Assembly (NCBI GenBank): GCA_965207065.1
Contig: OZ242260.1
Location: forward strand, 1,920,001-1,984,000
Origin: a bacterium
GTDB lineage: Bacteria > UBA8248
DNA length: 64,000 bases
Direction: 5' to 3'
Shown here: positions 6,942 to 42,078 of the stretch, one piece after another
Layout: every line of letters starts with the position of its first letter
How positions within the stretch are numbered: the first letter of the stretch is position 1
The notes under the pieces: model-generated
Database searches by the model: none
The model's input: the letters and a program-made list of their open reading frames with translations, nothing else
What the model was told of the DNA's origin: nothing
Made by a program: the position numbers and the translations under genes

Positions 6942-6942
6942 A

Positions 6943-19946: not shown

Positions 19947-20450
19947 TCAGAGTCCCAAGTCCATCTCGATCCGCTTCCCGCGGCCGGGTTCGGGCGCCTT
20001 CGCGCGCGGCATTTCCCGTCCGTTTTTCATGCCCGGGGAAGAGGAATCGGCCAGCTCCCGCTCCGTAGTTTCGCGCTCGTGTAGCGCCTTCGCGTCGAGC
20101 CCGGGCTGCGGACGGACGGATTCATCGATGCCCTCGAGTGCCGAGATGCGCTCGCCGGTCACGGTTTCGAGCCGTTCCCTGAGCGCCTTCGCGTCGTCGG
20201 TGACGAGTTCGGCCCTGTCCCGGGCGCGCGATATCTCGACGTAAAACGCTTTCGCCGTGGTCAGTTGGGGGTGGTTCGCCTCCATCGCGGCGATGACGCC
20301 CTCGACCGTGCGCCCCTGAAAGGCGTGCACGGTCGAGGCCCAAGCGCGGTCGAGATGGCGCAGTTGCGGGTCGCCCTGGGTCAGTGTGAGCTTGCGGCCT
20401 TCCTCGAGGGTGAACATCACCCGTCCGTTCCGGACCCCCGAGACCTCCTC
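19947..20450 (-). pseudogene. C-terminal fragment of a TrwC/TraI-type relaxase-helicase
   Basis: HLDRAWASTVHAFQGRTV and FYVEISRARD helicase motifs V/VI; the 5' part is replaced by IS1380 sequence. Confidence 0.85.
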
Positions 20451-21521
20451 GGTGAGCAGAAGGGCACGGCCTATAACGGCCACTTCGGCTGCACCTGCTA
20501 TCACCCGCTGTTCGTGTTCAACCAGTTCGGCGACCTGGAGCGTTGCGCGCTGCGCCCCGGCAACGTGCACAGCGCCCACGGATGGCGTGATGTCCTGGTA
20601 CCGGTGGTCGAACGTTACAAGGGACGAGCCATCCGCCTCTACTTCCGCGGCGATGCGGCCTTCGCCTCACCGGAGATCTACGACTACCTCGAAGCAGAAA
20701 GCATGCTCTACGCCATCCGGCTGCCCGCCAACAAGGTGCTGCAAGAGAGCATCGCTCATCTCCTGAAACGCCACGTCGGCAGGCCGCCCAAGGACGTGCG
20801 CCGGTATCATGCCAGCTTCAGTTATCAGGCCGGAACCTGGGGCAAGCCCCGCCGCGTCGTCGCCAAGGTCGAGTGGCATCCGGGTGAGTTGTACCCGCGG
20901 GTTGGGTTCGTTGTCACCAACTTGGGCCGCCCCACCGAGCGGGTGGTTGCGTTCTACAATCAGCGCGGCACGGCTGAGCAATGGATCAAGGAGGGCAAGA
21001 ACGCGATCCGGTGGACACGCCTTTCGTGCCGCAAGTTCGACCACAATGCCGTTCGCCTCAAGCTTCACGGGCTTGTCTACAACCTCGGCAACTTCATGCG
21101 CACCCTCGCGCTGCCCGATGCCGTGGAACAGTGGTCACTGACCAGCCTGCGATAGAAGGTCATCAAGATCGGAGCGGAGATCGTGCGCCACGGGCGCTAC
21201 GTCACGTTCCAGATGGCCGAGGTTGTCGTTCCTCGTGACCTGTTCGCCGACATCCTGCGCCGTATCGACCGGCTCAGACCGCCGCCAGCCCCGGCATGAG
21301 CGATGGCATCCTGTTCCTTCGGGTCGCCGCCGACAAGATCGGTGCGCCTGGACCGGACCGGATCGCCGGCAAGAATGCCATTCCGGGCCACCAATGCCGC
21401 CACTTGGTGCCCAATCATCCGGATCGGCGCGAAGATGGTCGTCATTCGAAGGCGAATTGCACGTCGAGCGGTTTCGAGTCACACTCAATGGGCTGGGAGG
21501 GTTCCATATGGGGAATCCCGG
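20451..21521 (+). mobile_element. IS1380-family element, 5'-truncated; transposase pseudogene
   Basis: GTAYNGHFGCTCYHPL, FRGDAAF, YNQRGTAEQWIKEGK; in-frame TAG at 21153 with homology continuing to 21299; end-like GGGAATCCCGG at ~21521. Confidence 0.85.
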
Positions 21522-25712: not shown

Positions 25713-27098
25713 ATGAACTCCAAAGACCTCTCTGAACTGATTGCGCTTGGCGAAGGTTTCACGACCGAGTTCAAACGCGCCGAGACATCCAGCTTGGGAC
25801 GGGAAATCTGCGCTTTTGCAAATGCCACCGGTGGTGTGATTCTGATCGGTGTAGAAGATAGTGGGGAGATAGTGGGAGTCGCGGACCACAACGGCCTGAA
25901 GTCCAGGGTGCAAGCCACCGCCCGCTCAGCGGATCCACCGGTTGCCATCGACGTGACGTCAGTCGACAGTGTGCTCTGTGTCAGGGTCCCGGAGCAACAT
26001 GGCAAACCCTATTCTTTCGGTGGCAGGTTCTTTATGCGCGAAGGTGCAAACTCTCAACAGATGTCGCGGGAGGAGATTCGCGAGTTCTTCTTCAAGGAAG
26101 GCCTCATCAGATTCGATGAGATGCAGTGTGGTGTTTTCCGCATCGAGAACGATTTGACAGACGAGAAGTGGGCGAAGTTCTCTCAACGTGCGGGAATACC
26201 CGAAGGACTGGAGCCTATTGCGACGCTGGAGAACCTGCATTTGCTGAAAGCCGGAGAGATGACAAACGCCGGGGCATGGGTGCTTGCCGACGACATCACT
26301 CGCTACACCTTACAGGCCAAAGTGATATGTGCAGTCTTTCGAGGAGCAACAAAAACCCACATCCTTGACCGCAGGGAATTCGACGCCGATCTTTTTTCTA
26401 TCTTTGAGGATTGTATGACGTATCTGCAGTCCAGGCTGAACACGGCTTTGATACCCCATGCCCTGGGAAGGGATGAACGTCTGGAGCTTCCCGAAGGCGC
26501 CTTGAGGGAAGCGCTGGTCAACGCCATCGTTCATCGGGATTATCGTTCCACCGCGAACGTACAGGTTCATGTCTTCCGCGACCGTCTGGAGATCGTGACG
26601 CCGGGCGGATTGCCGGCCGGGATGCGTGAAGAGGATCTAGGGACGAAGAGCGTGCCCCGCAACCCACTCCTGTTCGGTATGTTCTACCGCATGGGTCTGG
26701 TCGAGCAGGTCGGTAGCGGCATACGACGCATTCGCGAATTGTGCCGCGACTACGGGGTAACCGAGCCGACAATCAACGTCTCCGAGAATTGGGTGACCAC
26801 TATATTCGTGCGTCAGGTCGAACATGCGGCCTCGCAAGTACCCGACAAGTTCCCTGCAAGTACCCTGCAAGTCAGAAATCTCATCCGTTCTCTGGATGGC
26901 GAACGGACACGAGCAGAAATCCTTCAGAGTCTGGGACTCAAGGATCGGACGAATCTGGCCAAGGAATATATACAACCGGCTCTTGCCGCAGGACTCATCG
27001 AGATGACCATCCCGGACAAGCCCCGAAGCAGCAAACAGAAATATCGATTGACGGACAAGGGACGGGAATTGCAGGAGCACATGAAGCAGACGCGATGA
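25713..27098 (+). CDS. Schlafen AlbA_2 + HATPase_c_4 (RecG C-terminal-like) + HTH protein
   Basis: GEGFTTEFK, AFANATGGVILIGV, REALVNAIVHRDY, PRNP, MTIPDKPRSSKQKYRLT. Confidence 0.9.
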   Translation: MNSKDLSELIALGEGFTTEFKRAETSSLGREICAFANATGGVILIGVEDSGEIVGVADHNGLKSRVQATARSADPPVAIDVTSVDSVLCVRVPEQHGKPYSFGGRFFMREGANSQQMSREEIREFFFKEGLIRFDEMQCGVFRIENDLTDEKWAKFSQRAGIPEGLEPIATLENLHLLKAGEMTNAGAWVLADDITRYTLQAKVICAVFRGATKTHILDRREFDADLFSIFEDCMTYLQSRLNTALIPHALGRDERLELPEGALREALVNAIVHRDYRSTANVQVHVFRDRLEIVTPGGLPAGMREEDLGTKSVPRNPLLFGMFYRMGLVEQVGSGIRRIRELCRDYGVTEPTINVSENWVTTIFVRQVEHAASQVPDKFPASTLQVRNLIRSLDGERTRAEILQSLGLKDRTNLAKEYIQPALAAGLIEMTIPDKPRSSKQKYRLTDKGRELQEHMKQTR

Positions 27099-27242
27099 AC
27101 CTTTTCTGGTTTCACCTTGTTCCATCAAATGGACCCTGCTTTTCGCTCGGTGCGGATGCGAGCATCTTTCCGGCATCGCTGACACCTGTATCCGGTACAC
27201 GGGCGGCCTCGCCAGGGTTTTCCGGTGTGTGAGGGGGAGTGA

Positions 27243-27851
27243 ATGAAGCATATTGGGTTCTGGGCGATAATTGGCTTGAGCGTTCTCTATATCGCCTTTA
27301 TTCTCTTTTTGCGTGGAAGCGATGCCTGGCGCCTGTTAACAACAGGCGACCTGAACGAGTTGGGGGACTTCCTCGCAGGTTTTTTCACTCCATTGGCTTT
27401 CGGTTGGTTGATATACGGCTACCTCCTACAGTACAGCGAACTCTCCCTTCAGCGCAAGGAACTAGAGCTCACACGGGAACAACTCGCTAAACAGACGGAA
27501 TTGCTACAGGAGCAAGTAACAGCGGATTACCAGGATTCCATCCCCCATCTCACTATCAGAATCGTTAGATCCAATGATTGGTGGGAATGGAGAGTCGAAA
27601 ACAAAGGAGGCCCTGCGAAAGATATAAAATTACTGAATCTAAATGAAAGCTCAAAAGCCAAGATAGAGCTAAAATCCTTGGCACGTGATCAATTTTTCGA
27701 TTTCACAGTTTCTGAAATCAGCAACCCCATCAGATATGAGGCGCGTTTCAGCTCGGACCGCTCAGAAATGTTTCATCAAACCTGGGAGATCGGGAGTGGC
27801 AAGTGTAGGGAAATCACGGAAGGGCCGGAGCGGCTTGATGAAGATCGATAG
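27243..27851 (+). CDS. Two-TM coiled-coil membrane protein
   Basis: LNELGDFLAGFFTPLAFGWLIYGY followed by LQRKELELTREQL. Confidence 0.75.
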   Translation: MKHIGFWAIIGLSVLYIAFILFLRGSDAWRLLTTGDLNELGDFLAGFFTPLAFGWLIYGYLLQYSELSLQRKELELTREQLAKQTELLQEQVTADYQDSIPHLTIRIVRSNDWWEWRVENKGGPAKDIKLLNLNESSKAKIELKSLARDQFFDFTVSEISNPIRYEARFSSDRSEMFHQTWEIGSGKCREITEGPERLDEDR

Positions 27852-27950
27852 GAACCGCCAACCGACGAATAACAACCCCGCGCGGCCAAGGGATCGGCTA
27901 CCACGCCGGATGAGCACTCTTCAAATTCCATTTCTTGTAGTGGCATCCTT

Positions 27951-28535
27951 TTAAAACCACGCGTCATTCATCCGCCAGTAGTATTTCGTCCCCTTGAGCG
28001 CGGCGTTCTCTTTTGCGCAATCCCACGGCGTTTTGCCCTCTTTGTCCCCACACGCGCCGTAGCTCAAGCCTTGCGCGTATTCCGTGACTTCGCCACGACT
28101 GAGACTCTCGACCGACCAGCGCCCCGCCTCCTGGTCGGGCGCGGCCAGCGCCACCCGGGCGCCGCAAATCTCCAACACCGTCTCGGCACCATTTCGCCCA
28201 TAAAAATCGCGGAGGGTGGATATCACCTGGATACCCAGCATGTAACACTCCCGAACTGACGCGATTCGGCGAGACCGGGTTGTAAGGTCGGCACCTAGTG
28301 TAGGGTGGGGAGTTCATCCAGCACAATCCATATCCTGCGCCCATCATCCTGACCCAGGGACAAAGCGCGTTCACGGCGATCTCGAACCAGATCGAGATGA
28401 GACCCCGGAGACTCGTATGTTGATCCCCTCGCGATGTCAGGAACTGTAAGCCGGTCTCGTCCTCGCGCTCCACCCACTCCCTTATGGAAAAGGCAACACC
28501 TAAGTCGGGGAGGCACTCGAGCGCGCCCAGGTGCG
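27951..28535 (-). pseudogene. Type IV coupling protein (TraD/TrwB) fragment joined to an ankyrin-protein-like tail
   Basis: FSIREWV, RRIWIVLDELPTLH and LGIQ...YGRNGAET across shifted frames; ends GKTPWDCAKENAALKGTKYYWRMND. Confidence 0.7.
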
Positions 28536-28895
28536 CTGTCAGCATGGGGAACCTGGACACGAACCGGGCTGACCCCCGTCAACACCTTCCGCGACGGCAG
28601 ATAACCGTTGCGTACCACCGCGCGACGTCCCCGCGCGTGACGCTCGGCCGAATGCTCCACGAGGAAGGCCCCCAACTCCACTGCCACCGCCTAGCGGATG
28701 ATTCGTTGCGCGCCCTCGCGCACCAAGTCGCTCAATTCGTCCCGATAGGCTGGATTCGTAATGGGAATCGTTGTATCTTTGTGGATGGTGGCGCATCTTC
28801 TGTGTGCTGCATGACCGGGCTTCTGACAACCCTATTTCAGCAGGAATGTGGCGCCTTCTTCAATTCAGCCCATACACCAGACCTGAGTGTAACTC
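28536..28895 (-). mobile_element. IS256-family left-end fragment
   Basis: GRRAVVRNGYLPSRKVLTGVSPVRVQVP N-terminal motif, then truncated. Confidence 0.7.
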
Positions 28896-28970
28896 GGTTA
28901 ATCGAGAATCCACCCAGAAGATTCATCATTTTTCCGAGTGCAAATTATGTGGTCCGAAGGAAGAAACCCA

Positions 28971-29339
28971 ATGAAGACTATCCTCAGCGCGCTCGCATTG
29001 TGTGGGATGATGGTGCTTACGGCTGAAACGATAAGTGCTCAATCGTTCCGAGGACCTGCAAATGCAGACAAAGATAGTTGCTACAACACTATTGGCAAAT
29101 GCATATTTGCAAAATCAAAAACTAAGTCAAATGGGCAGGTTCTGCTAAAGATCACAAACAATTGCCGTGGCCGTGTATACATAAAATATCCGACTGGAAC
29201 GATCCACCAGATTTTGATTAATGGCCGGCGGCCGGGGTCCGGCTCTACGGCGGGCGCGCTCGAAAGGGAGGATAACCATGAAGTCTTCGATACTTGTGAT
29301 CTTCTTTTGCGTCATATGCATCTCGGCGATGCAGATTAG
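28971..29339 (+). CDS. Small secreted Cys-containing protein, probably truncated or chimeric
   Basis: MKTILSALALCGMMVLTA signal-like N-terminus. Confidence 0.4.
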   Translation: MKTILSALALCGMMVLTAETISAQSFRGPANADKDSCYNTIGKCIFAKSKTKSNGQVLLKITNNCRGRVYIKYPTGTIHQILINGRRPGSGSTAGALEREDNHEVFDTCDLLLRHMHLGDAD

Positions 29340-29586
29340 TGATGCACGAGCGAATGAAGATCACGACGCAGCAATGAACTCCGGAATTGCGGCTGGAGCG
29401 ACCGCCGGCGCTGCGTTGGGTACTGGAATCGGGTTCTTAGCAGGACCGTTAGGAGCAGTGGTAGGGGGAATTATAGGGGCAGGAGCGGGAGCTATTTTGG
29501 CTATTGAGGGGAATCGCAGGTATGGAAGATCGATCAAGAAGAGGCGGCTCAGGCAACATCTCTGTCCAACTCCAAATCCCTGCTAA
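29278..29586 (+). CDS. Secreted glycine-zipper peptide
   Basis: GGAGG RBS; signal peptide ending ARA; GAALGTGIGFLAGPLGAVVGGIIGAGAG; cationic tail. Confidence 0.65.
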   Translation: MKSSILVIFFCVICISAMQISDARANEDHDAAMNSGIAAGATAGAALGTGIGFLAGPLGAVVGGIIGAGAGAILAIEGNRRYGRSIKKRRLRQHLCPTPNPC

Positions 29587-30116
29587 TTTCGCGACACTTT
29601 CCTACATAAATCCCCTTGTTTGGGGAATTATATACGAAAGTACCGAAAGGAGATGGGTTCAAACAACTTTTAGTGGTAAATATTTCAATCCGTCGTAATA
29701 TCAATATTCGTGATTATAATAAGGCCATTATTTTCAAGGAACTTTAATATTTCTACTTCCTGGTCAGACACACTGATCATTCCTTCTAGATTCGACTCAT
29801 CAATTGATTCTTTCGTCATGGACTTTTCGTTTTGCACCGAGACTTTATTCGCTACGCCGAACAACATAAAAAAGAACATGGAGGCGATAAAAGGCCGACA
29901 TCAAGAAACTATGGCGGCGCTGCTGGCTCGGCGCGATGCGCGAATCGAACAGCACCGGGAAACGATAAAGATGATGGAACACCGACATCAGTAATCGATG
30001 AAGGCGCTCGAAGGTCAAAACAACGCGATGATGAAATTCATCCGGCGTACGTCGGCGTAGTCTGCGCGAGGGGATGGGTGAGGGGGGGGGGAGAAACCCT
30101 TTCACACAAGTTTTTT

Positions 30117-31553
30117 TCAATTCCCTATAGTCAACCCCACGAGTCCATATGTTTGGATTCTGCCAGTGTCGTGGCAATAGTAGGCTTGAAACAATTCGAA
30201 GTCACTCCGGTGGTTCTCATCGCATTTCTTGGAGATTATCTCGATAATTTTCAGCTTTTCGCTATCCGGCGTGCGGATTCCAAAAATAATACCCTTCAAT
30301 AAACTGAAATCGTAAGTCAGGGCACGAGAATTCTTGTCGAGATCACCTGACAAGCCATGTAGTACCAAGCGAGTTTCTTTCTCGTATTTCCAGTCGAGAG
30401 TTTTTATGGATAAAGCCGGGTAAAAACGATCCCAGTAGGCCTGTCTCCAGGCCTCGGTATCGATTCCAAAGTGAGATGCGCATTCACTCAAGTTTCCATC
30501 CTCATCGCTGTACCAGATTTCTATAAGCTTTATCTCAGGAAACATACCAAGGGAGCGAAAAAAATCGATTTCACCGGCTTTCTCTCCATATTTCACGTCG
30601 TGAAATTCCATCCGGCGAGGTCCCCATGTTTTCCCATGATTCGAATAACCCGTAACTTTGTTCAATGTCAGGCTGTTTACTCCATCTTGTGTATCCGATT
30701 CAAAAATCAAGCATACTCCTTTGTGGCCATCGCCATAATTCGCCCACATCGAAGCATTACCATAGTCTCTAGTAAAACAAGCGGCATACCAGCTTGGATA
30801 AAGCACTCGTTCAAGTTGTTGCAAATATGATTTTGGGAAATCAAAAATCAAAAATGTTAGATTACTTTCAAGATTGCTGCCAGGATTTTCCCTGCGCAGA
30901 TATTTATACTTGAGATGTATATCTTGCCACGTGCTTGAACCAATTCTCATCATATAATCAACAAATCCTTCTTCTTCGAATTGTGGCAACAGATCGAGAA
31001 TCTTGTGAAAATGTTCGAAGCTATCTGGGAACTTGCTCCATATCTCGTTACTAGATTCCAATTCGTAATCGACATATGTGTCTTGAATTTCCCTTAATGC
31101 AAGGTGGTGCAATCCCTGAAGATAAAAAAGAATCTCGTCGTGGCGGACTATTCGTTCTGCATTTACGAGTTTTTCAATAAATTTATGCAGTTTCGCTTTG
31201 TCGAATACTCTTCCATAGATATCCTCTATCAATCCACGTAACCGAGGTGCCGGGTCTTGGTCTTGGTCCGACATGACAGGAATGAGCTGAGGCCCAATTC
31301 GTTGACTGTCTCCAAGAAAACGCACAATCACGCACGTCATGTGTAAACAATAAAGGTAGTGGCGAAAAAAATTAGCCCAGACGATGTGATCACCTTTCCA
31401 AAAAATGTCTCGGAATCCTTCCATCGGGTCGTTGAGTTCTTGCGAATTGGCAAAGTAAATTGTCTGTCTCTCAAGCTCTTCGCAATCTGCACATTCTTTG
31501 AGCAATCTTTCTGTAGTCCTGAATCTGTACAATTCCGTCATTGTCAGTCTCAT
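30117..31553 (-). CDS. DUF2971 domain protein
   Basis: ELNDPMEG, MWANYGDGHKGVCLIF, KTLDWKYEKETR; low GC. Confidence 0.85.
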   Translation of the reverse strand: MRLTMTELYRFRTTERLLKECADCEELERQTIYFANSQELNDPMEGFRDIFWKGDHIVWANFFRHYLYCLHMTCVIVRFLGDSQRIGPQLIPVMSDQDQDPAPRLRGLIEDIYGRVFDKAKLHKFIEKLVNAERIVRHDEILFYLQGLHHLALREIQDTYVDYELESSNEIWSKFPDSFEHFHKILDLLPQFEEEGFVDYMMRIGSSTWQDIHLKYKYLRRENPGSNLESNLTFLIFDFPKSYLQQLERVLYPSWYAACFTRDYGNASMWANYGDGHKGVCLIFESDTQDGVNSLTLNKVTGYSNHGKTWGPRRMEFHDVKYGEKAGEIDFFRSLGMFPEIKLIEIWYSDEDGNLSECASHFGIDTEAWRQAYWDRFYPALSIKTLDWKYEKETRLVLHGLSGDLDKNSRALTYDFSLLKGIIFGIRTPDSEKLKIIEIISKKCDENHRSDFELFQAYYCHDTGRIQTYGLVGLTIGN

Positions 31554-31569
31554 CTCCTGTAGTTTCCTG

Positions 31570-31792
31570 CTACTTCCTCCGTCGTTTCCCCTTACCCCTC
31601 ACCCGCACATTAAGCGGGGTGAACATTTTCTCATGCAGGGCGAAGAGGCTCTATACGCGCTCGCGCCCGGAGGCGAAGCCAGTGCGGAGGCAGAGGCGAT
31701 CTACAGCGCGCTCCAGCACCTTATGAGCGCGACGCTGATCGGGCGGTATGAGGTTCAGGTCGTAGAGGTTGGCCAGTGTCGCTTCGGGATGC
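31570..31792 (-). repeat. Decayed copy C of the MmeI-like gene 3' end
   Basis: HPEATLANLYDLNLIPPDQRRAHKVLERAVDRL...GFASGRERV*SLFALHEKMFTPL. Confidence 0.9.
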
Positions 31793-31880
31793 CCCAGACC
31801 GCGATGTCCGGCGAGACCCTGCTCTTGGTCGGACGGTTACTTGGTCCCAAGCGGTACAGAACTAGGGCGATGTAAGCCCT
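31793..31880 (+). pseudogene. Tyrosine integrase C-terminal fragment fused to copy C
   Basis: QTAMSGETLLLVGRLLGPKRYRTRAM*. Confidence 0.7.
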
Positions 31881-31961
31881 ATCATCGTTCGGGATAAGAG
31901 ATACATCGGCCAAAAACGACGAACACTATAGCTATGAGATCGCCATTCTGCTTCGTTTTCC

Positions 31962-33095
31962 TCAAACAGTGTTCCGTTGTCTTCGCCAATCATCAAACTC
32001 TAATAGATTACGAAGAAATAGTTCGTATTGCTCATCCTCGTCCTGGCTCGGCTCAACAGGCCCGAAATCATTTTGCCGGCCAAGAAACTCGTCTAACTCC
32101 TCCTTTGAAACAACCGGAATCTTTACATGGCGTCCCCACTGCGACCGCGCTTCCATGTAACTCTCGCTATTTACCTGAATAGAAAGCGTTGTTGAATGAT
32201 CTTCTTGAACATGAGCGGCATACCACTTCTGTAAGGCGTAACCTATGCTATCCACCTCGTAATAGTAAAAGCGGCCTGCGCCGCGCGCCTTCCACTCCGG
32301 AGCCACCATTGATTTTCTGTCGTCATCAAAACTCACGTATCGTACGCGAGCCAAGCAGGTTTGATGATATCGGATTTCGTAATATCCCGCATGATTATTA
32401 TCTCTGCGAATCTCTCCGCGCGTCCACTCCTCATTACGCGCCATGAACTCTTCCGCCTCAGTAACTGCTAAAGTGAATTCGGGGAATATCTTATGGTGCT
32501 TGAACGGATTTACTCCTACCCTGTTACTCGGCACCCATGAATCAGTTTCGTTTAGGTAGAGCTTAATTCTGTCAAGTGGAGAGATATCCAGTCCGAATCG
32601 CTCCCGCCACATTCGTTCAATTTCATGAGGCTGTGCAGCATCCGTTGCTGGAGTGTTGGTATCGCAGACGCGTGTGTAAATATGATGCGCACAAAGTTTC
32701 TCATACCTTTCGACAAGGTAATATGGTTTGTGTGGTGTATCCTCAATTATCAACACATCCAGCAATGTTCCGTCTATTGTTATTTCCATCAGATGAAAGT
32801 CCGGAAATCTCGACTGAAAAAATTTGCTCGCGTTGTCGCGAAAAAGACCTGCAATATTGGCTTGCGTCCTCCGTCCGGGGTCATTGCTTATCGTGTGTAG
32901 GGAGAAATTCAAATCGTCAACTCCAAAAATCAGGAACCGACTACCTTTGTGTTTGGCATTGGCAAGGCATAGAATATCATGAATTAGATCCGCCTTGTTT
33001 GTGTGATGGCAGCTCTTGAAGTCCCAGTATGTCCCTTCAGAGCGACGAACAATGAGCGCCCTAATGTCTGCTAGTAGAGTATCGTTCCTGGTCAT
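31962..33095 (-). CDS. Schlafen AlbA_2 domain protein
   Basis: EGTYWDFK, DLIHDILCLANA, LIFGVDD, KPYYL, IYTRVCDTNTP. Confidence 0.88.
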   Translation of the reverse strand: MTRNDTLLADIRALIVRRSEGTYWDFKSCHHTNKADLIHDILCLANAKHKGSRFLIFGVDDLNFSLHTISNDPGRRTQANIAGLFRDNASKFFQSRFPDFHLMEITIDGTLLDVLIIEDTPHKPYYLVERYEKLCAHHIYTRVCDTNTPATDAAQPHEIERMWRERFGLDISPLDRIKLYLNETDSWVPSNRVGVNPFKHHKIFPEFTLAVTEAEEFMARNEEWTRGEIRRDNNHAGYYEIRYHQTCLARVRYVSFDDDRKSMVAPEWKARGAGRFYYYEVDSIGYALQKWYAAHVQEDHSTTLSIQVNSESYMEARSQWGRHVKIPVVSKEELDEFLGRQNDFGPVEPSQDEDEQYELFLRNLLEFDDWRRQRNTV

Positions 33096-33343
33096 ATGCC
33101 TCTCTTCCGAGTTTGTGAATTTCTTCTTGTCCTCCGTCTTAGTTTTTTCTTCACCCTCGCTTCAAACGGTGTGCGCATTTTCTCGTATAGGGCGTTGATG
33201 TGCTCAACGCGCTTGCGCTCAGAGGCGATGCCGCTTCGGCGATAGAGTTTGTCCACGGTGCGGTCAAGAGTATGATGGGCCCGGCGCAGATCGGGTGGCA
33301 TGCAGTACAGCTCGTAGAGGCGGTCAAAGTTGCGTCTGGGTGC
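33092..33343 (-). repeat. Decayed copy B of the MmeI-like gene 3' end
   Basis: MPPDLRRAHHTLDRTVDKLYRRSGIASERKRVEHINALYEKMRTPF; its stop overlaps the AlbA_2 start (ATGA). Confidence 0.92.
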
Positions 33344-33480
33344 GCCAGACCGTGATGTCAGGTGAAAACCTGCCCTTGTTTGGAAGGTTACTCGGAGATA
33401 AGCGGCATAGAACCACGGCGGGGTATGTCCAACTCGTCGACTCGCACCTTGCCGAAACCGCAGAGAAGGTGCGGGCGTTA
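33344..33480 (+). pseudogene. Tyrosine integrase C-terminal fragment fused to copy B
   Basis: QTVMSGENLPLFGRLLGDKRHRTTAGYVQLVDSHLAETAEKV covers the catalytic Tyr region. Confidence 0.8.
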
Positions 33481-34335
33481 TCAACGAGACGATAAATTCT
33501 GAGCGGAATATTCCCCAATTGTCGCTCGCAAAGCACTCATAAACTCGCTGGCAACATTACAGTGATTTATGAGAGAAAAATCTTTCGACCTATTAGCTGG
33601 CAAATTAGCCAAAGTCCATTTTCTCAACAAACCTGAGCCGTGCGCTTCCGGTGTCCTAATGTCATCCACCATCCCGATCACATCACCCATTATTTTCAAA
33701 AATGGGTCTGGAAACGGGATAATTAAATTGCGATTGTCAATTTCTTTAGCCGCTTCCCTTTTTTCTGAATGGATAAGCCAAGTCCTAACGATATTCGTTA
33801 GACACTTTCGGAAATGCAACGAAATTTCAGGCCAGTCTCGGGCGTGCTTGAAAAAGTAAGACTTTCTGCTTTTTGCCTTGACAAATTTCTCATACCTTCG
33901 ACATTCGTAAAGCAGAAATAATACTCCCATGTATTTATCCCAAAATGCACGAATTCGGAACGACAAAGCCGATAAAGCATATAGAATATCCGTTTTCCCA
34001 GAGAATAGCTCGAAATCTTGGAGCACTGCCCCTGACGCAATCCGTCCTCTACTGTGCAGTTGATTATATATGCCGCCAGCTAAATTCACATCTTTCATCA
34101 TGAACAGGTAGGTCAACTCAAGATCGACACAGGCATTCAACAGCTTGCCGTTGATGCGATCATCGTCGCAGTGTATGCGGGAGTACTTGTAGACGTTGCG
34201 AATGTCGTCGCATAGGTTATATCCAGTAATAGTCGCCCCTCCGTATCGGCTAATACATGTCGCAAAGTCTTCTGCATCTTGAAGAGAAGTAATACGGAAT
34301 GGTTCTGGCTCTTGAAACACACCTTCTCCGATCAT
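33481..34335 (-). CDS. Hypothetical protein, possibly HEPN-like
   Basis: Low GC; RTPEAH fits RxxxxH; helical composition. Confidence 0.65.
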   Translation of the reverse strand: MIGEGVFQEPEPFRITSLQDAEDFATCISRYGGATITGYNLCDDIRNVYKYSRIHCDDDRINGKLLNACVDLELTYLFMMKDVNLAGGIYNQLHSRGRIASGAVLQDFELFSGKTDILYALSALSFRIRAFWDKYMGVLFLLYECRRYEKFVKAKSRKSYFFKHARDWPEISLHFRKCLTNIVRTWLIHSEKREAAKEIDNRNLIIPFPDPFLKIMGDVIGMVDDIRTPEAHGSGLLRKWTLANLPANRSKDFSLINHCNVASEFMSALRATIGEYSAQNLSSR

Positions 34336-34369
34336 GAGCGTATCGTCCTAGAAGTTGGCTTGCTTCTAG

Positions 34370-34540
34370 TCAGACGTACCGCTTTTTCCTCACTCCGGTT
34401 CCCAGCGACGTGTACATCTTCTCATAGGACGCGAACAAATGCTCCACGCGCTCGCGTTGGGAGGCTATACCGCCCTAGAAGTAAAGCGCGTCCACGGCGC
34501 GATCGAGGAACTTGTGGGCTGTGAGCTTTTCAGCCGGAGG
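34370..34540 (-). repeat. Decayed copy A of the MmeI-like gene 3' end
   Basis: AHKFLDRAVDALYF*GGIASQRERVEHLFASYEKMYTSL. Confidence 0.88.
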
Positions 34541-34544
34541 CGAT

Positions 34545-35574
34545 CTATGCAACTCTGAACAGCTTATAAATTTCCTGCCTCAATTTATCATCGCAATCAA
34601 ATTCCACCGACTTCAAAGATATCATGTAATCTACCTGTTCTTTGCTGCGAAACGGTTTGCGGCGTATTTCACGGACTTCTTCGGCGCTAAAGTACCGATG
34701 GAGGTAATCATACGGATTTTTCCCCTGCCCTATTTGCTTAACAAGAAAGTTGACCCATTGCGCAGTACCCGTGCGTCTCTTCAAATCTTCGATTTCAAAA
34801 AAATCTCTCTCCGCGGCTGTTACGTTTCGGGCAAATAGGTTCTCGATTTTTTCATATAAATCTTTCAAAACTTTGAAATGTTCCCCCTACAACTATAGGC
34901 AAATCTATACTTTCCCCCATCGAACGCTCGATATAAGCCTTCGATACGCTATTCCATCTCCCAAATTTCAGGTTTTCTTTGCCAATCTTCAAAGTGCCAG
35001 CCGTCATCCCGCCTCTCCATGATATTTGCCATTCCGGAACGAAGACAACCCCATGAGATAAATTATTTCTCAACTCCCTTATGAATACGGCAACATCACA
35101 ACCAAAACTTTCTGTTTTGATTTCCTCAATGCTGGCTCTCACATCATCAGGGCACTCTCGCTGAATATTATCAAGAGTCTGTTGCAGGCCAACCACCAAA
35201 GCGCAATACGCCATCATGTCCTTTTGCGCTGCGTGCCCAACGACATGGGCTACATGCGTTTCGAAATTAGTGTCCTTCGAAAAGGCTCCAAGGGCCGCAG
35301 CATGACGGGAAATATCAATATATGCTTGGTGAGCTTCCGAGTATTGCGCTTTCAAACCTTCCTTCAATCTATTCTTTTTCCAGTAGATATGATGGCGGAT
35401 CACGCTCGTTCGCTCTGGACCTATACGCTGGTTTATGGTGTTCCGAATTTCGTCACAGGTTGGGATATCGCCACGTTTCAGATATGAAATAACTTTGCGA
35501 TTTTCAACATCTTTTCGTTGGCGTTCCATCTCTGAAGATCTCTTGAAAAGCTCCCAATTATCCGGTTCTTTCAT
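34545..35574 (-). pseudogene. HEPN-like protein, probably frameshifted (ORFs 34852-35574 and 34545-34868)
   Basis: ELRNNLSHG fits RxxxxH; two overlapping same-strand ORFs; low GC. Confidence 0.55.
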
Positions 35575-35618
35575 TATTACCTCACAATATCGTCGTCATG
35601 GATAATCAAGTTTTATTA

Positions 35619-38405
35619 TCACCCCCGCCTCCGCCGTCTCGGTTTTTTCTTCGCCCTCACTTCCAGCGGCGTGCGCATTTTCTCGTACAGGGCGAAGAGG
35701 TGCTCCACGCGCTCGCGTTCGGAGGCGAATCCGCCCCGGCGGTAGAGACGATCCACGGCGCGGTCGAGTGCCTGGTGGGCCCGGCGCAGATTGGGCGGCA
35801 TGAAGTCGGGGTCGTAGAGGTCGGCCAGCGTCGCTTCGGGGTGCGTCGCGCGCGCGTCCAGAACGGCCTGCGCGAGTGGATCCAGCTTCGAGAGGTCGGC
35901 GTCTCCTGGCGGCGTGGGGAAGGTGTTGTAGATGACACCGATTCCGTACTGGAAATCGCTCTTTAACCGCCCCCCAATGTGTCTGACCCATGCCATGTGC
36001 ATTGCAGAGGTCAGGAGTGCGAACTCCTGTAAATCAGCATTTGGTAAGACTCTTACTTTGTTGCTTGGAATCACAGGCGGTTCAAGCCAAGCAATAGGTA
36101 TATAATCTCTTCTTTCGGAGCTTACTTCGGGGATAACGAGAAACGGCGCAGTTGGGATAACCTCAACATTGTACCGCGCCGGGTAGTCAGCAACCTTAAG
36201 TGTGCTCTTCCGTTTGCTCTTCGCCCTGAAACTTTTGACAGCGCGCATTCGTTCTACAACTTTTGGCATGGCCTTGAGATCCGCTGGGCCGGCTTCTTGA
36301 AGAGCAAGAATCCAGCGTTCACCGCCTTGCAGATATTCGCGCGCGCCGACATACGGATGCATGAACTTATCTGCAGCCAGTTCTTCCGCGAGTAAGGCCG
36401 CGCGTTGGTCAGCACTGAAAATGTAATTCCCGTTGTCGATAGGTTGTGAGCCGCTCAATAGTGGAAGTAGGCCGTTAATTGGCCGACTCTCCTCCCGCAC
36501 CGTCAGATGCGGATCGGCGAGGCCGCCCGCGTCGAACAGGTAAGGCGAGAGGGCGGTGTGGCGGCTTTCCTCCGGTTCGCCGTTTATATCGGGATAGCTG
36601 AACAGGCGTTTTTCCGCCCGCGCCGCCTCCCGGGGGTCCAGGCCGATAATAACAACGTGCACGTGCGCCTTCCCGCGCGCGTCCGACCCCCATGCGAAGG
36701 TGCGGTGGGCGAAGGCAATCTCCAGCCTGCACCGCTCGAAGAGCAGAGGCCAAAGCTGCGCCGCCTGCTCACCCTGCGTAATCGAGTTGGTGGCGACGAA
36801 GCCGACCCGCGTCGCGCTCTTTTGGAGATACTCCCCCGCCCGGATGAACCACGCGGTCACGTAGTCGAGCGTTCCGCCGCTCTTGCCGAGATCGGCGATG
36901 CGGCGCACCTGCAAGCGCTGCTCGGCCGTCTGGAACTTGGCGCCCACGAATGGCGGATTGCCGAAAACATAGGAGCAATCCTCGGGCGGTAGAAGCGCCG
37001 CCCAGTCGGTCTCCAGCGCGTCGGCGCACAATATGTGCGGGGAAGTCGTAATGGGAATGCGGGTGTAGGTCTGGCCGAACTCCAGGCTCAGGCGGTTGTT
37101 CATGATGTGGTCCATCATCCAGAGCGCCGTCTCGGCGATGCGCGCCGGAAACTCGCCGAGTTCGATGCCGTAGAACTGATCCACGGTGATTTTCGAAAGC
37201 TCGGCCACGTCGAGTTCTTGCTGCGCCTCGTCGGCGCGCAGTTCGCGGATGACCTCCATCTCCAGTTCGCGCAACTCGCGATACGCGATGATGAGGAAGT
37301 TCCCGCATCCACAGGCCGGGTCGAAGAAATTCATCTCGCCGAGACGTCGCTGGAACGCTTCGAGTTCGGCGCGGCGGCGGCTGTCCCGGCGGGCTTTGAG
37401 CCGCCCAAACTCCTCGCGCAGATCGTCCAGGAAAAGCGGCTCGATGACTTTCAGGATGTTCTTCTCGGTGGTGTAGTGCGCCCCCTGCGCGCGGCGCTCT
37501 GCGGGATTCATGACCGATTGGAACAGCGCGCCGAAGATGGCGGGCGAGATGTTCGACCAGTCGAAGCGGCAGCATTCGAGCAGGGCGTTCCGCATGGCGG
37601 CGTTGAAGGAGGGAATGCGCAGGGAATCCTTGAACAAATCGCCGTTCACGTAAGGGAAGCGGGCGAGGTCCACATCCAGCGTGCTCTGGCGGCCGTTCTC
37701 CGGCGTGTCCAGCGCCTGAAACAGTTCGGCCAGCTTCGCCCCGGAGTCCGAGCCGTCCTCGCTCGTGCGCTCTTCGATGAAATCATAGAAAATATCGCGC
37801 GGCTCGAAGATGCCCGTGTCGTCCGCGAAGAGGCAGAAGACGACGCGCACCAGAAAGCGCTCGAGATCGTGCCCCTCGTAGCCCGCCTCCGCTAGGGCGT
37901 CGTGCAGGTTGCCCGCGAGTTCGGCGGCCTTGATGTTGGCGGGGTCCTGATCGCGGAACTCGCGGCGTTGCACGCCGAGAATGAAACCGAATTTCTCGAT
38001 ATTGGCGGGCAAATCGGCGAGGGTGAAGGAGGTGTGCGTATCCTCGTCCAGATTGCGTAGTTCAAATGTCTGGAAATCGCTCACGAGGATGTGTCCGGGC
38101 CGTTCTCTTTCGGGGAGGGCGTCGAAGTATTCCCCCGCCTGCCCGTAGGCTCGCTCCAGATCGCGGCCCTCGCTTTTCTGTTCGACCAGCAGGACGCGCG
38201 GCCAGAAGAGATCGATGTAGCCATGGCGGTTGTCGAGCAGTTCCACGCGCTCTTCATAGCGGGCGACGGAGCGGCGCTGGACGCCGAAGATATGGAAGAA
38301 ATCGTTATAATAACTCTGCGTCTCGCCCTTCTCGTACGCGGCGCCCGCCCAAGCGCGGGCGAAACTCGCCGCGCGCACGCGTATCTCGTTCCAGGATAGG
38401 CGCAA
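35619..38405 (-). CDS. MmeI-family type IIL restriction-modification enzyme (fused REase-N6A MTase-TRD)
   Basis: YIDLFWPRVLLVEQKS nuclease motif, GAHYT, FFDPACGCGNF (motif I), GNPPF (motif IV), TLADLYDPDFMP C-terminus; 928 aa. Confidence 0.93.
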   Translation of the reverse strand: MRLSWNEIRVRAASFARAWAGAAYEKGETQSYYNDFFHIFGVQRRSVARYEERVELLDNRHGYIDLFWPRVLLVEQKSEGRDLERAYGQAGEYFDALPERERPGHILVSDFQTFELRNLDEDTHTSFTLADLPANIEKFGFILGVQRREFRDQDPANIKAAELAGNLHDALAEAGYEGHDLERFLVRVVFCLFADDTGIFEPRDIFYDFIEERTSEDGSDSGAKLAELFQALDTPENGRQSTLDVDLARFPYVNGDLFKDSLRIPSFNAAMRNALLECCRFDWSNISPAIFGALFQSVMNPAERRAQGAHYTTEKNILKVIEPLFLDDLREEFGRLKARRDSRRRAELEAFQRRLGEMNFFDPACGCGNFLIIAYRELRELEMEVIRELRADEAQQELDVAELSKITVDQFYGIELGEFPARIAETALWMMDHIMNNRLSLEFGQTYTRIPITTSPHILCADALETDWAALLPPEDCSYVFGNPPFVGAKFQTAEQRLQVRRIADLGKSGGTLDYVTAWFIRAGEYLQKSATRVGFVATNSITQGEQAAQLWPLLFERCRLEIAFAHRTFAWGSDARGKAHVHVVIIGLDPREAARAEKRLFSYPDINGEPEESRHTALSPYLFDAGGLADPHLTVREESRPINGLLPLLSGSQPIDNGNYIFSADQRAALLAEELAADKFMHPYVGAREYLQGGERWILALQEAGPADLKAMPKVVERMRAVKSFRAKSKRKSTLKVADYPARYNVEVIPTAPFLVIPEVSSERRDYIPIAWLEPPVIPSNKVRVLPNADLQEFALLTSAMHMAWVRHIGGRLKSDFQYGIGVIYNTFPTPPGDADLSKLDPLAQAVLDARATHPEATLADLYDPDFMPPNLRRAHQALDRAVDRLYRRGGFASERERVEHLFALYEKMRTPLEVRAKKKPRRRRRG

Positions 38406-39244
38406 TTGCGGACTCAGGCGGTGCCGCGCCGGGCGGTAGTAGGGGGCAAATTAAGGAGCAATACTTGTCTCGTGATGTTCATAGTGTAGGAATATCGCAC
38501 ATTTCGGAGCGTGACTCCTAGCCGGTAAAGGTTGCGTTCCGATTTCAATCACGGATCGTAAGTATAGGGCTCGCGTCTGCTTGGAAGATAAGTTATCGAT
38601 ATTTCTCCCGCCATTCCCGTTATTTATGCTTTCCGACAAACGGTTCGGATCCAGGCGCATGAGTAGGGGCATGCCGGCTTTTGCCTGAAAATTACCGCTC
38701 CATTTTCGGTATTATACATGATCGCACAGATGGAACAGGGGATAACATTCATGTGCCCTGGCATACGGATGGCTTACTTGCCAGAGTTCAAGAAAGGTCT
38801 CCCCATCATTAAAGGAGCTTGGGGCCGTATAGCTTCACCCAGGTGCGGAGTGCCAGTAGTCGATGTAGTAGTTTTGCCCCTTTTCCGTGTACGTGTTAGG
38901 CAGCGCGACGGAAGAGTTCTCCATGACGCGTCTACGCGCCGCCGAATTTGCGGCCTGACTCTTGGCCTCTACGCTACAACTCGCCGGTACCTACGGGTGG
39001 CGGTCTCAACTGTGACGGCTGCCACCGGGAAACGACGACTGGCGGGTATCACTGTCACCGCGGCGGGAAGAGCGACAACGGGAAGACGTAGGGGCAGTGG
39101 ACTACTTGGTCGTAAGGTCACGTTTGTATGGGCTATTCTGGGGGGCACCGCGCAGCTACCGGCAGTTCGAACTCCCAGAAAGGGGCTACGGTTCACGCCG
39201 GTCCAGCAGGATCGCGAGGGCGCGTTTGTTGAGTGGAGGTGGTG

Positions 39245-39907
39245 ATGCTGCCCTACTATCTTGTCAAACTCTTCACCCACGAGGAGCATGCCGCGGCTTT
39301 CAGTTGCGGAGAGATTTACGCCCGAAAGCTGCGGTGTTTTCGCAAGGAGGAGTCTGAGGGTCGAGGGGACTAGGCTGAAGGCACGATAGTCAACCTCCAT
39401 CTGAAAGATCAGAAACTCACCCTTACCGCTATAACCCCAGAGGGTCGGAAAACGATAGATATAACCGACAAAGATATTGCGGCTCCTGTGACGATGGGAA
39501 GCGACGCTATTCTGGACCTTCATGTGTTCTGTATGGTCGGCCTTTATGGAAGCTCAGGATCAGAGAACACCCACCAAATCAATTTGCCTGAAAGGTGCTT
39601 CCGCGAATTTGGAAAGTACGCCGTAGTCATCCTTGGCGACCACGTTAAGGAGTTTATCAACAGGGTTCAGGTCGCCGCGAAGAGAGAGGGATACCAAGTC
39701 TCGTGTAACCGTGTGACGTACTACGATCCCACTAGTTTCGACGGGCTGATTCCGGAGGATCGGGCCCCTTTCAGCAAGTAAAAAAAGTTCGAGTATCAAC
39801 AGGAATTTCGGCTCGTATTCGATACGAAAAAACCGGGGACGCTCAAATTGAATGTCGGGGAACTAAGCGACATTTCGGGGGCGGCGAAAGTCGTGCTCAC
39901 CCGTTGA
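39245..39907 (+). pseudogene. Hypothetical-protein pseudogene with two in-frame stops
   Basis: One frame from ATG 39245 with TAG at 39371 and TAA at 39779; continues KKFEYQQEFRLVF, similar to DUF2971-type C-termini. Confidence 0.65.
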
Positions 39908-40719
39908 AAAAGAAGTCGCCAAGGCCTTTACGGAAATCTGCCAGCGTTCGCCGGGCACTCCACGGAGCTTCGTCTTGTACGAATAACACGTCTCGTCCCA
40001 CTCCACCGCCACCGCGCTCTGTGTGTCATCCTTGAGAGTGACCACGATGGACGCCAGCTTTTATGGGAACAGAACGACCTCGCGGGTCAGTCCGAAATTC
40101 GTTACGGTTCCGACTAACCCTGGAATTTACCCGACAGCGCGCCCTCTTGTTTCCTGAAGTGGGACACGTAGTCGTCGCGCTTTCTCGAGTCGACCTTGTT
40201 GATCTCGACGATGTCGCGCTACGCGATTTCGGCAAGGGCTACGAAGGTTAGGTCGTTGTTGCAGTCGGCGCGCTGCAACCCAATTGCGCGAGGTGTGAAA
40301 AATCATCGAGAGAATCTTCGCTCAATTACCGTGCACCCGCCAAGTGTCAATGGACCCGGTCTATCGCGTACAGGCAGCCTACCGCCCCCGGCCTGATAAT
40401 TCCAGGATTCCCTGTAATTTGGGCTGGAGTACTAGCGGGACTCGCGCTAACATTTTATCGTATTTCAGAAACCAGGGAACTTGGCCTTGACCTTTTTGAG
40501 CAGTTAATGGACATGAATTCATACGGATTGGATGAACACCTTTCGATGATTGACAGACCGGCATTTCAATCGTGAGAAAACACTCACCGAGACAGAATAA
40601 GTTAAGAAAGGAGAGAGAAAATCAACTTCCAGAAACTGTTTCAGGCTCGCCGTAGACAGACCTGACCGCGCCGAGTCCTCATCAGACACGGTGAAGAGCT
40701 TACGGAGGGTTTTTGGTCA

Positions 40720-41522: not shown

Positions 41523-41985
41523 CTACAGCTCTTCCGACTCGAAATAGTCTTCGTCTATCCGCTTTAACTCGTAAATGATTCGCGTACGCACGCCGATCCC
41601 ATACCGGACCATGAGGCGCGCCAACTCCTCACCGTCGACCAGAGCAATCCGCTTAAGGCTCAGAGCCACGTAATTTTTCGCGGCTTGCGTGAATCCGTAG
41701 GTGGTGACGAACACCCCCTTGGTCGTGCCCGCCGCGTCGATTGCGCCGGCGAAGTTGCGTAAATCGCCTTTTCCCACGGTGTTGCTGTCAGCATATTTCT
41801 TCGCCTTCAAGTAGACTTCATCCAGCCCGAGCGTGTCCTCCCGGATCTTGCCGTCGATTCCACTATCGCCTGAACGTCCAGTCACACGGCCCATCGCAAT
41901 CAGCAAGTCAACGACTACACGTTCAAGAAACGCCGGTGCGGCTGTGGTTCTGGGCATCTGCGGATCAGGATCGACAAAGTCCTTG
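41523..41985 (-). pseudogene. mrr: Mrr type IV restriction endonuclease, truncated
   Basis: GRSGDSGIDGKIREDTLGLDEVYLKAKKY, KGVFVTT, LVDGEELARLM, KRIDEDYF; N-terminus missing. Confidence 0.85.
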
Positions 41986-41999
41986 AGCGAACCTGTCAG

Positions 42000-42078
42000 A
42001 TGAAGAACCGAGTGCGTCAATCGCGCACGCTCGGGTCTGTGGGGGGCGGGGCGCAGAAATGCTCCCGCCTACCCGGCC
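42000..42078 (+). ncRNA. Group II intron 3' end (domains V-VI), isolated fragment
   Basis: GAACCGAGTGCGTCAATCGCGCACGCTCGGGTCTGTGGGGGG DV hairpin with AC bulge, then DVI ending CCTACCCGGC. Confidence 0.8.

Follow-up and report, generated by a model that had tools for sequence, protein, structure and literature searches.

Displacement arrays are known from polymorphic toxin loci: orphan cdiA-CT/cdiI modules of contact-dependent growth inhibition (CDI) systems form such arrays, and C-terminal displacement in rhs genes was reportedly described by Jackson in 2009. The present analysis concerns an array behind a restriction gene, located in a window of 64,000 nucleotides (nt; the window is the whole stretch that was analysed, positions 1,920,001 to 1,984,000 of contig OZ242260.1, assembly GCA_965207065.1, from a bacterium of the UBA8248 lineage). 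There, an intact MmeI-family type IIG/IIL restriction-methyltransferase gene, hereafter MmeI, is followed by four genes, here called cargo, that alternate with decayed copies of the MmeI 3' end, two of which are joined back-to-back to the 3' end of a tyrosine-integrase gene. The whole is probably a sequential-displacement array behind a horizontally circulating MmeI gene, in which the joint would be a single old illegitimate fusion that was later duplicated, with exchange of cargo. As part of this reading, the integrase remnant is most likely a passenger scar and not an active site.

Two described situations come closest. [quoted passage not shown] P4-like satellites, in turn, have a defence hotspot between psu and int, and exchange of its content through recombination in the flanks is proposed in the accessible portion of Rousset et al. 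2022 (PMC9122126).

Organization of the MmeI array

The window is part of a 4.48-Mb single-contig genome (G000, contig C1). It was compared with related genomes (G codes; 51 in the phylum set and 61 in the wider related set), with MmeI loci drawn from a genome collection (L041-L120), and with the contigs of three public sequencing runs (X1, X2, and X3). Read along the minus strand, from MmeI towards lower window coordinates, the order is MmeI, cargo 1, copy A, cargo 2, copy B, cargo 3, copy C, cargo 4, and distal flank, with the following parts (aa, amino acids; ORF, open reading frame):

35619-38405, minus strand: intact MmeI-family type IIG/IIL restriction-methyltransferase gene at the array head, 928 aa, assigned by Pfam and PADLOC
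34852-35574, minus strand: cargo 1, a 240-aa ORF of no known family, with an RNNLSH (Rx4H) motif seen by eye only
34545-34868, minus strand: a 107-aa ORF overlapping the end of cargo 1, with a sub-threshold Pfam match only
34383-34537, minus strand: MmeI 3' copy A, starting at about residue 870 (PPxxxxAH), with in-frame stops and without an integrase remnant
33481-34335, minus strand: cargo 2, a 284-aa ORF of no known family, with an RTPEAH motif seen by eye
33343-33492, plus strand: integrase 3' remnant B, the last ~50 codons including the stop, with LLGH decayed to LLGD
33092-33344, minus strand: MmeI 3' copy B, from His855, with an internal frameshift and a stop codon that overlaps the start codon of cargo 3
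31962-33095, minus strand: cargo 3, a 377-aa Schlafen/AlbA_2 protein (Pfam PF04326, 8.9e-10; PADLOC PDC-S50, 8.2e-77)
31792-31872, plus strand: integrase 3' remnant C, ~27 codons, shortened on its 3' side
31576-31791, minus strand: MmeI 3' copy C, from His855, with an in-frame stop
30117-31553, minus strand: cargo 4, a 478-aa DUF2971 protein (Pfam PF11185, 4.3e-08; PADLOC PDC-S31, 1.9e-18)
29893-30087, plus strand: decayed 3' end of a convergent small membrane-protein gene, the distal flank (tblastn 53% identity, E 5e-13; blastn 71% over 161 nt)

The head gene carries all five Pfam MmeI domains (MmeI_N, MmeI_hel, MmeI_Mtase, MmeI_TRD, and MmeI_C) and matches PADLOC REase_MTase_IIG with E=0. 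Downstream of it, direct repeats of the last ~215 nt of MmeI lie at 33128-33344 (B) and 31576-31792 (C), with the shorter copy A in addition; all three copies are decayed, through a frameshift in B and in-frame stops in A and C, and each is followed by another minus-strand ORF. The repeat unit is the one that the preliminary description had given correctly, namely an MmeI 3' end, a cargo gene, and a convergent integrase 3' end. The cargo genes have a G+C content of 40-49%, against 55-66% for MmeI. Cargo 3 and cargo 4 fall into candidate defence families of PADLOC (PDC-S50 and PDC-S31, respectively), while cargo 1 and cargo 2 have no match in Pfam, NCBIfam, or PADLOC; both of the latter have orthologues in G013, each 84% identical, that of cargo 1 at the equivalent position. 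The 107-aa ORF is a possible second gene of the cargo 1 module. For the cargo 2 protein, the protein Atlas lists HEPN_Cthe2314 as rank 12 with a score of 0.92, the family being assigned to 19% of members, which is a lead only, and the label "HEPN-like" was dropped for cargo 1 and cargo 2, as it had come from motifs seen by eye plus this one lead. Two cargo families of other loci have sub-threshold Pfam matches to HEPN.

It is very improbable that the array is an artefact of repeats mis-joined during assembly. The genome is metagenome-assembled, with an estimated contamination of 4.95%, but a 7698-nt contig of X1 and X2, runs that may themselves be the source sample, covers 28819-36516 with 0 differences. 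Moreover, the pieces recovered from the second sample, X3, are identical, and G013 has an orthologous array with the same order as the window up to B.

The variable slot behind MmeI

The genome collection holds at least 559 relatives of MmeI, and the loci analysed are the best 80 of them, with 70-81% protein identity; 5 of these 80 duplicate genomes already present in the G set. They come from metagenome-assembled genomes of many phyla, many of which are named sponge bins or sponge symbionts. Their labels include Alpha- and Gammaproteobacteria, Acidobacteriota, Latescibacterota, Cyanobacteria (Ca. Synechococcus spongiarum), and Chloroflexota, and further Gemmatimonadota, Nitrospirales, Binatia, Thermodesulfobacteriota, and others. 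This sharing of MmeI across phyla within sponge microbiomes is striking.

The gene that follows MmeI is hypervariable across the sponge-symbiont phyla. From 69 predicted next ORFs, the 43 that lie on the same strand, reach at least 100 aa, and start within 100 nt of the MmeI stop were kept, and they fall into 33 clusters, a count that omits three loci with an interrupted MmeI and the first copy of a tandem pair. Several slot ORFs begin at an ATGA overlap with the MmeI stop codon.

An empty configuration of the same slot is present in G000 itself. At 4118400-4118620, an MmeI tail 94% identical to that of the window gene directly abuts a convergent small membrane-protein gene, and the corresponding flanks in the window, 35625-35690 and 29927-30087, lie 5.5 kb apart with the array between them. 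Isolated MmeI tails abutting a convergent gene of this kind were seen at G000 C1 4118554-4119738 and 2833302-2833460; the former follows a full-length 327-aa Mrr paralogue beside leuC-like genes, in a chromosomal position that holds a full MmeI array in G008.

Three cargo families occur both behind displaced fragments and behind full-length MmeI genes. Specifically, the MTQRS family follows fragment G013-B and the full-length genes of G008, G022, and L056; the MNxxLF...TTFEFLQRGGR family follows the fragment at G000 1163105 and the full-length genes of L046, L089, and L112; and the MNDPHV family follows the fragments G044a2 and G042 and the full-length gene of G004. The fragments themselves are mosaic, and the cargo and tail change at the end of the conserved block. 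Copy B of the window and its counterpart in G013 have a common 5' part that includes an identical frameshift. Past ...PLEA, the G013 copy runs on into a G008-type MmeI tail from which 8 nt are deleted, then through the intergenic region to an MTQRS gene, and the window copy into a different tail followed by the AlbA_2 gene. More generally, the short basic MmeI tail tends to co-vary with the cargo family. The empty configuration, the hypervariable slot, the cargo families found also behind full-length MmeI, and the mosaic fragments are the grounds on which sequential displacement is proposed.

The MmeI/integrase joint

Copies B and C both start at the codon aligned with MmeI His855 (HPDATL / HPEATL). 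On the opposite strand, an integrase remnant reads away from each of them: from B, RQTVMSGENLPL... (33343-33492; RQTVMSGENL...), and from C, PQTAMSGETLLL... (31792-31872; PQTAMSGETL...). The remnants, of ~50 residues in B and ~27 in C, are the C-terminus of a DUF4102/P4-type tyrosine integrase and start directly after its RLHDLRHTAAS box. In support of this assignment, 291 of 304 candidate proteins match at E<=0.001, and the full-length matches carry PF13356, PF22022, PF14659, and PF00589.

B and C align without a break across the joint, over 271 nt with 70.5% identity (E 2e-29), so that the joint is a matter of homology and not of chance. The earlier statement is correct that both copies break off at the MmeI His-Pro codons, back-to-back with a tyrosine-integrase 3' end that begins at one and the same codon. 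The junction strings then quoted are likewise in place; a degenerate 29-mer spanning the joint matches the window at 33338 and 31787 (reversed control, 0 matches), and the CCAGA reported 12 nt past the equivalent point of the intact MmeI gene is indeed there.

From the base comparison, the integrase parts of B and C appear to be sisters with a common ancestor that was already fused. In the 79 columns that can be aligned, the identity of remnant C is 75-80% with the B copies (G000 and G013) and only 58-63% with five full-length integrases. At 7 of the 79 columns, both B copies and C have a base in common that is missing from all five full-length genes, and these derived bases include the rare TTA and AGA codons. 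Since the integrase remnants of B and C have derived bases in common and are closest to each other, the two joints would come from a single fused ancestor.

The joint is rare. With at most 2 mismatches, its pattern occurs twice in G000 and once in G013, that is, in 2 of the 51 phylum genomes; a metagenome scan with the degenerate 29-mer gave 0 matches, which is weak evidence, as sponge samples may be few in that collection. The protein database contains another B-type ORF, P0001. A second, independent integrase/MmeI joint with other end points lies in G000 at 1163105-1163350; its integrase part begins near residue 314 and its MmeI part near residue 897. The locus of this second joint (G000 C1 1161130-1167932) is outside the window, and the joint is placed there between unannotated ORFs, downstream of PLD-, DUF1998-, and helicase-like ORFs that by eye resemble DISARM genes. 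Two paralogous genes of 300 and 351 aa form the distal flank of this locus and also that of the G013 array, which suggests one ancestral array split by rearrangement. Lastly, a possible further joint is suggested by two inverted copies of a decayed integrase-like remnant (RKPVIWGENQPL...TTAGY), with the same starting codon as B and C, at G000 C1 3197-3292 and 4471783-4471878; a faint MmeI-tail-like translation runs alongside them, and they have no match to B and C at the DNA level.

Source loci and island accretion

An arrangement from which the joint could derive exists among the relatives. In 5 of the 80 loci, MmeI is followed by a variable cargo gene and a convergent P4-type integrase, intact in L043 and L047 and broken in L067, L088, and L091; all five are alphaproteobacterial by their record titles. 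The integrase carries ASQAVM(A/S)GENL and has 64-83% identity to the remnant's family; its stop codon is abutted or overlapped by the cargo, as it is by cargo 2 at remnant B. The check proposed in the preliminary description, a search for convergent loci whose integrase has an SQxxMSGExL-type motif, found such loci.

In these five loci, the P4-type integrase is always accompanied by a second tyrosine-recombinase paralogue ~1.23 kb behind it, and the two may form a two-recombinase mobile module. The pairs span:

L043: 7165-9544
L047: 12446-14771
L067: 14148-16108
L088: 6131-8328
L091: 6658-8772

L088 and L091 have a further co-directional recombinase pair upstream of MmeI. In the window, a pair of recombinase genes is located at 5787-8112, and mobile-element debris near the island (19947-21155 and 27964-28687) comprises, by eye, a relaxase-like C-terminus, a DDE transposase ORF, and an IS256-like transposase fragment. 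Mrr stands directly upstream of MmeI in 10 of the 80 loci; the Mrr of the window (41523-42020) has only 165 aa.

With such islands at hand, the array could also have grown by tandem accretion of units composed of Mrr, MmeI, cargo, integrase, and second recombinase, in which deletions from an integrase to the next MmeI leave scars of the two 3' ends, as in the accretion of integrative and conjugative elements (ICEs) and cis-mobilizable elements (CIMEs). A single deletion that takes both 5' parts would leave just such back-to-back remnants, and two independent joints with different end points are known; two full-length MmeI genes stand in tandem in L074, two copies lie 6 kb apart in L058, and the Mrr paralogue with an MmeI tail at G000 4118554-4119738 would fit as well. 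Against these points, the integrase side of the five loci has no att-like repeat, no MmeI 3' copy, and no tRNA gene, the fragments that directly follow the stop codons of unrelated genes (G006a, L056, and G018) go unexplained, and B and C would still be duplicates of one scar. Accretion of islands is therefore considered unlikely.

Search for a recombination site

The preliminary description regarded the joint as a candidate recombination site and circle junction. In that explanation, one site in the MmeI 3' end and another in the 3' end of a convergent integrase would undergo site-specific recombination and release circles of MmeI 3' end, cargo, and integrase 3' end, which would integrate in tandem as integron-like cassettes. 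Several features are compatible with it: the end points of B and C are identical, the convergent arrangement exists, with intact integrases in L043 and L047, all cassettes point in one direction, and the starts of MmeI fragments cluster loosely around ~845-858. The sister relation of the two integrase remnants, the presence of the joint in only 2 of 51 genomes with 0 metagenome matches, and a second joint with other end points all speak against it.

The features of a site are likewise missing. No inverted repeats were found at the B and C joints, and the folding of the DNA on both strands there is no better than in shuffled sequences (z-scores -0.69 to +1.75). Among 82 full-length MmeI orthologues, the four-fold-site entropy of codons 888-915 is 1.55 bits against 1.47 gene-wide, which gives no synonymous constraint, and the four-fold-site diversity at codons 851-861 is unremarkable. 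In the same alignment, the target-recognition domain (codons 651-800) reaches a four-fold-site diversity of ~1.7 bits against 1.2-1.5 elsewhere.

A cognate integrase is missing from the host genome as well: G000 has no close full-length integrase, its best match to the P0016-type integrase being 44% identical, and among the 61 genomes only G042 and G044 have matches at least 79% identical. The sequence beyond the integrase or the second recombinase, less than 500 nt in L043 and L047, contains no MmeI 3' copy in any of the five loci with an integrase, so there is no sign that the integrase targets MmeI. These loci also have no tRNA genes and no att-like repeats, the repeat search having returned only the paralogy of the two recombinase genes.

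Moreover, the starts of MmeI 3' fragments vary: they lie at residues 598, 813, 833, ~843, 845-858 (six contexts), 870 (two contexts), and 875-897 (about ten). Like copy A, most of the other fragments lack an integrase remnant and start elsewhere than at His855; to the left of such fragments, inspection by eye found the stop codons of HigA-like, XRE-like, and another restriction-modification gene, and the first ~28 codons of an IS3-like orfA. Taken together, the sister remnants, the rarity of the joint, the other end points elsewhere, and the missing site features and cognate integrase make the site-specific explanation improbable, and a role of the joint as a recombination site or circle junction is not supported.

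The loose grouping of starts could alternatively come from recurrent, independent breaks at fragile spots, the MmeI spot at codon ~855, just after the alternating GCGCGCGC run, and the integrase spot just after the RHT box. Several unrelated MmeI fragments do start within ~845-858, and in the intact gene the GC-alternating run lies immediately upstream of His855. Nevertheless, B and C are identical in nucleotides on both sides of the joint and have derived integrase substitutions in common, which points to one event, and the other fragment ends in the region differ by several codons, so that recurrent breakage at fragile spots is judged quite improbable.

Two further searches concern the array as it stands. 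The promoter and terminator scan of 29800-36000 gave 9 and 7 sites against 8.3 and 6.3 in shuffles, none of them in the minus-strand MmeI fragments, and with counts this near the shuffle level there is no support for the idea that the fragments are kept as promoters. Over 27000-40000, the contigs of the three public runs contain no joints inside the array; rare variants are not visible in contigs. In X3, the depth figure is 22.6 for the contig piece 33416-35211, which takes in cargo 2, copy A, and some of cargo 1, and 8 and 4.4 for its neighbours; the contigs of this run break inside integrase remnant B and inside cargo 1, and 30472-31339 is without cover. Depth and breaks may reflect strain-level differences in the array, which contigs do not allow to be interpreted.

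A proposed model of sequential displacement

The alternative that the preliminary description had offered, in which one old fusion was later duplicated and cargo was exchanged, fits best and is part of the displacement reading favoured here. According to this reading, the slot after the MmeI stop codon would hold a variable gene, often of defence type, that moves together with the last MmeI codons, the tail. New modules of MmeI 3' end, tail, and cargo would enter by recombination anchored in the conserved MmeI 3' coding region, and each entry would shift the earlier 3' end and its cargo downstream. The B/C joint would have arisen once, from a module that came out of a convergent MmeI, cargo, and P4-type integrase locus of the type seen today in alphaproteobacterial sponge symbionts. 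On the left, this module would have ended within MmeI homology; on the far side, its integrase codon ~332 would have been joined illegitimately to codon 855 of a resident MmeI. The unit with its joint would then have been duplicated, most simply by unequal crossing-over between ~220-bp direct MmeI repeats, an event made possible by the very repeats that the fusion had created. One cargo would later have been replaced, and at C the replacement would also have taken the last ~25 codons of the integrase remnant; modules without an integrase piece, such as that of copy A, would have been added likewise. As molecular steps, we infer homology-facilitated illegitimate recombination, unequal crossing-over, and a cargo swap by double crossover.

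Several points weigh against this reading. None of the steps of the mechanism appears in the contigs of the three public runs, in which rare variants would not be visible. The sister grouping of B and C rests on 79 nt and on the DNA of five full-length integrases, all alphaproteobacterial, and B and C may share a donor lineage instead of a joint. The MmeI parts of B and C are not mutually closest, as each is 72-75% identical to full-length genes and the two are 63% identical to each other; these identities give no support to the idea that the MmeI parts are sisters in the way the integrase parts appear to be.

The cargo genes raise a further difficulty. Among the other ~100 loci, none was found with cargo 2, 3, or 4 of the window behind MmeI. 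In the 61 related genomes, cargo 3 (AlbA_2/PDC-S50) has a single homologue, at L122 (G022 C1 506359-510474; 63% identity, one internal stop), which comes after what by eye resembles a pair of cytosine methyltransferase and HNH endonuclease, a different restriction-modification context; behind this homologue lies a convergent small membrane-protein gene that belongs to the family of the window flank. Lastly, six independent fragment starts (the B/C lineage, G044b, G006a, G029, L046, and L056) fall within ~845-858, a loose clustering that could hint at a preferred break region; this interval was picked after the data had been seen, and the ends within it differ by several codons and do not coincide at one nucleotide.

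A broader proposal, possible but doubtful, is that the MmeI 3' end is a community-wide docking platform, in which modules of MmeI tail and defence gene are swapped and stacked by recombination in the conserved last ~70 codons across more than 12 sponge-symbiont phyla, and any integrase 3' end that is present serves as a second arm. In a stronger form of this proposal, the preferred break region at ~845-858 may reflect a yet-unknown site-directed process. If the docking platform were real, the restriction gene would collect anti-phage genes in the manner of an integron, without the need for a dedicated integrase.

Significance

What looked like a new recombination site is most likely an ordinary scar, which spares effort on a mechanism that is probably absent. 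The favoured reading also implies that the displacement-array logic of polymorphic toxin loci shapes the surroundings of a restriction-modification gene. Past acquisitions can then be read off the array as a stack, and the stacked genes, namely PDC-S50, PDC-S31, and two unannotated ORFs, are probable defence genes. Since another gene stands behind MmeI almost every time, the slot is a cheap place to seek new defence genes, and it can mark gene flow within sponge microbiomes. Most worth following is the wider pattern of one restriction gene common to many sponge-symbiont phyla with an ever-changing gene behind it.

Comparison with known systems

Searches of the literature on MmeI, sponge symbionts, defence hotspots, and C-terminal displacement listed no paper on displaced MmeI 3' ends or on a cargo slot behind MmeI. 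Among systems with a similar outline, integron arrays also have promoterless-looking genes in the same orientation, a recurring spacer, and a tyrosine-recombinase gene, here beside the source loci. Unlike an integron spacer, the MmeI spacer is decayed coding sequence without attC-like folding and with variable boundaries, and there is neither an integron-type integrase nor an intact integrase at the array.

Similarly, the type I hsdS shufflons combine a restriction-modification gene, partial 3' copies nearby, and an association with a tyrosine recombinase. Their copies are inverted, whereas those of MmeI are direct and decayed and comprise the last 30-75 codons, in MmeI_C. All MmeI copies in the window start at residue 855 or later, and the target-recognition domain occupies residues 632-832; recombination among the MmeI copies would delete or duplicate cargo and would not alter specificity, in contrast to a shufflon. 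The accretion of ICEs and CIMEs at the 3' end of fda in Streptococcus thermophilus likewise yields tandem units bounded by copies of a gene 3' end, with truncated integrases between them, but here there is no evidence of an integrase that targets the MmeI 3' end.

The P4 hotspot can be compared as well. As far as the available part of its description goes, it likewise has a variable anti-phage slot between a P4-type integrase and a conserved gene, with different systems at one place. The other flank here is MmeI, in contrast, and the integrase is present in only 5 of the 80 loci; tandem stacks with duplicated flank pieces are not among the features described for P4 in that part of the text. 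No psu, cos, or other P4 genes were seen in the MmeI loci, where the ORF lists of L043, L047, and L067 have only the integrase and the second recombinase, no systematic search having been made.

Closest are the displacement arrays themselves, which equally have an intact conserved gene at the head and displaced modules in one direction, each after a 3' remnant of the conserved gene. In the accessible parts of their descriptions, the displaced modules match ones found at full-length genes elsewhere, as do here the MTQRS, MNxxLF, and MNDPHV families of related arrays but not cargo 2, 3, and 4 of the window in the ~100 loci compared, and a homologous anchor is combined with an illegitimate far end. 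They differ in that the conserved gene here is a type IIG/IIL restriction-methyltransferase and not a toxin, in that a separate downstream gene and a short basic tail vary instead of a toxic C-terminal domain with its immunity gene, and in that the modules here are probable defence genes, some of whose scars hold an integrase piece of the donor locus. The mechanism behind the MmeI array may best be read, by analogy, as one like that of the T6SS, rhs, and CDI orphan arrays. Within the range of the sources available, displacement arrays and integrase-flanked defence hotspots are both already known, and the new side is their setting, an MmeI-type restriction gene.

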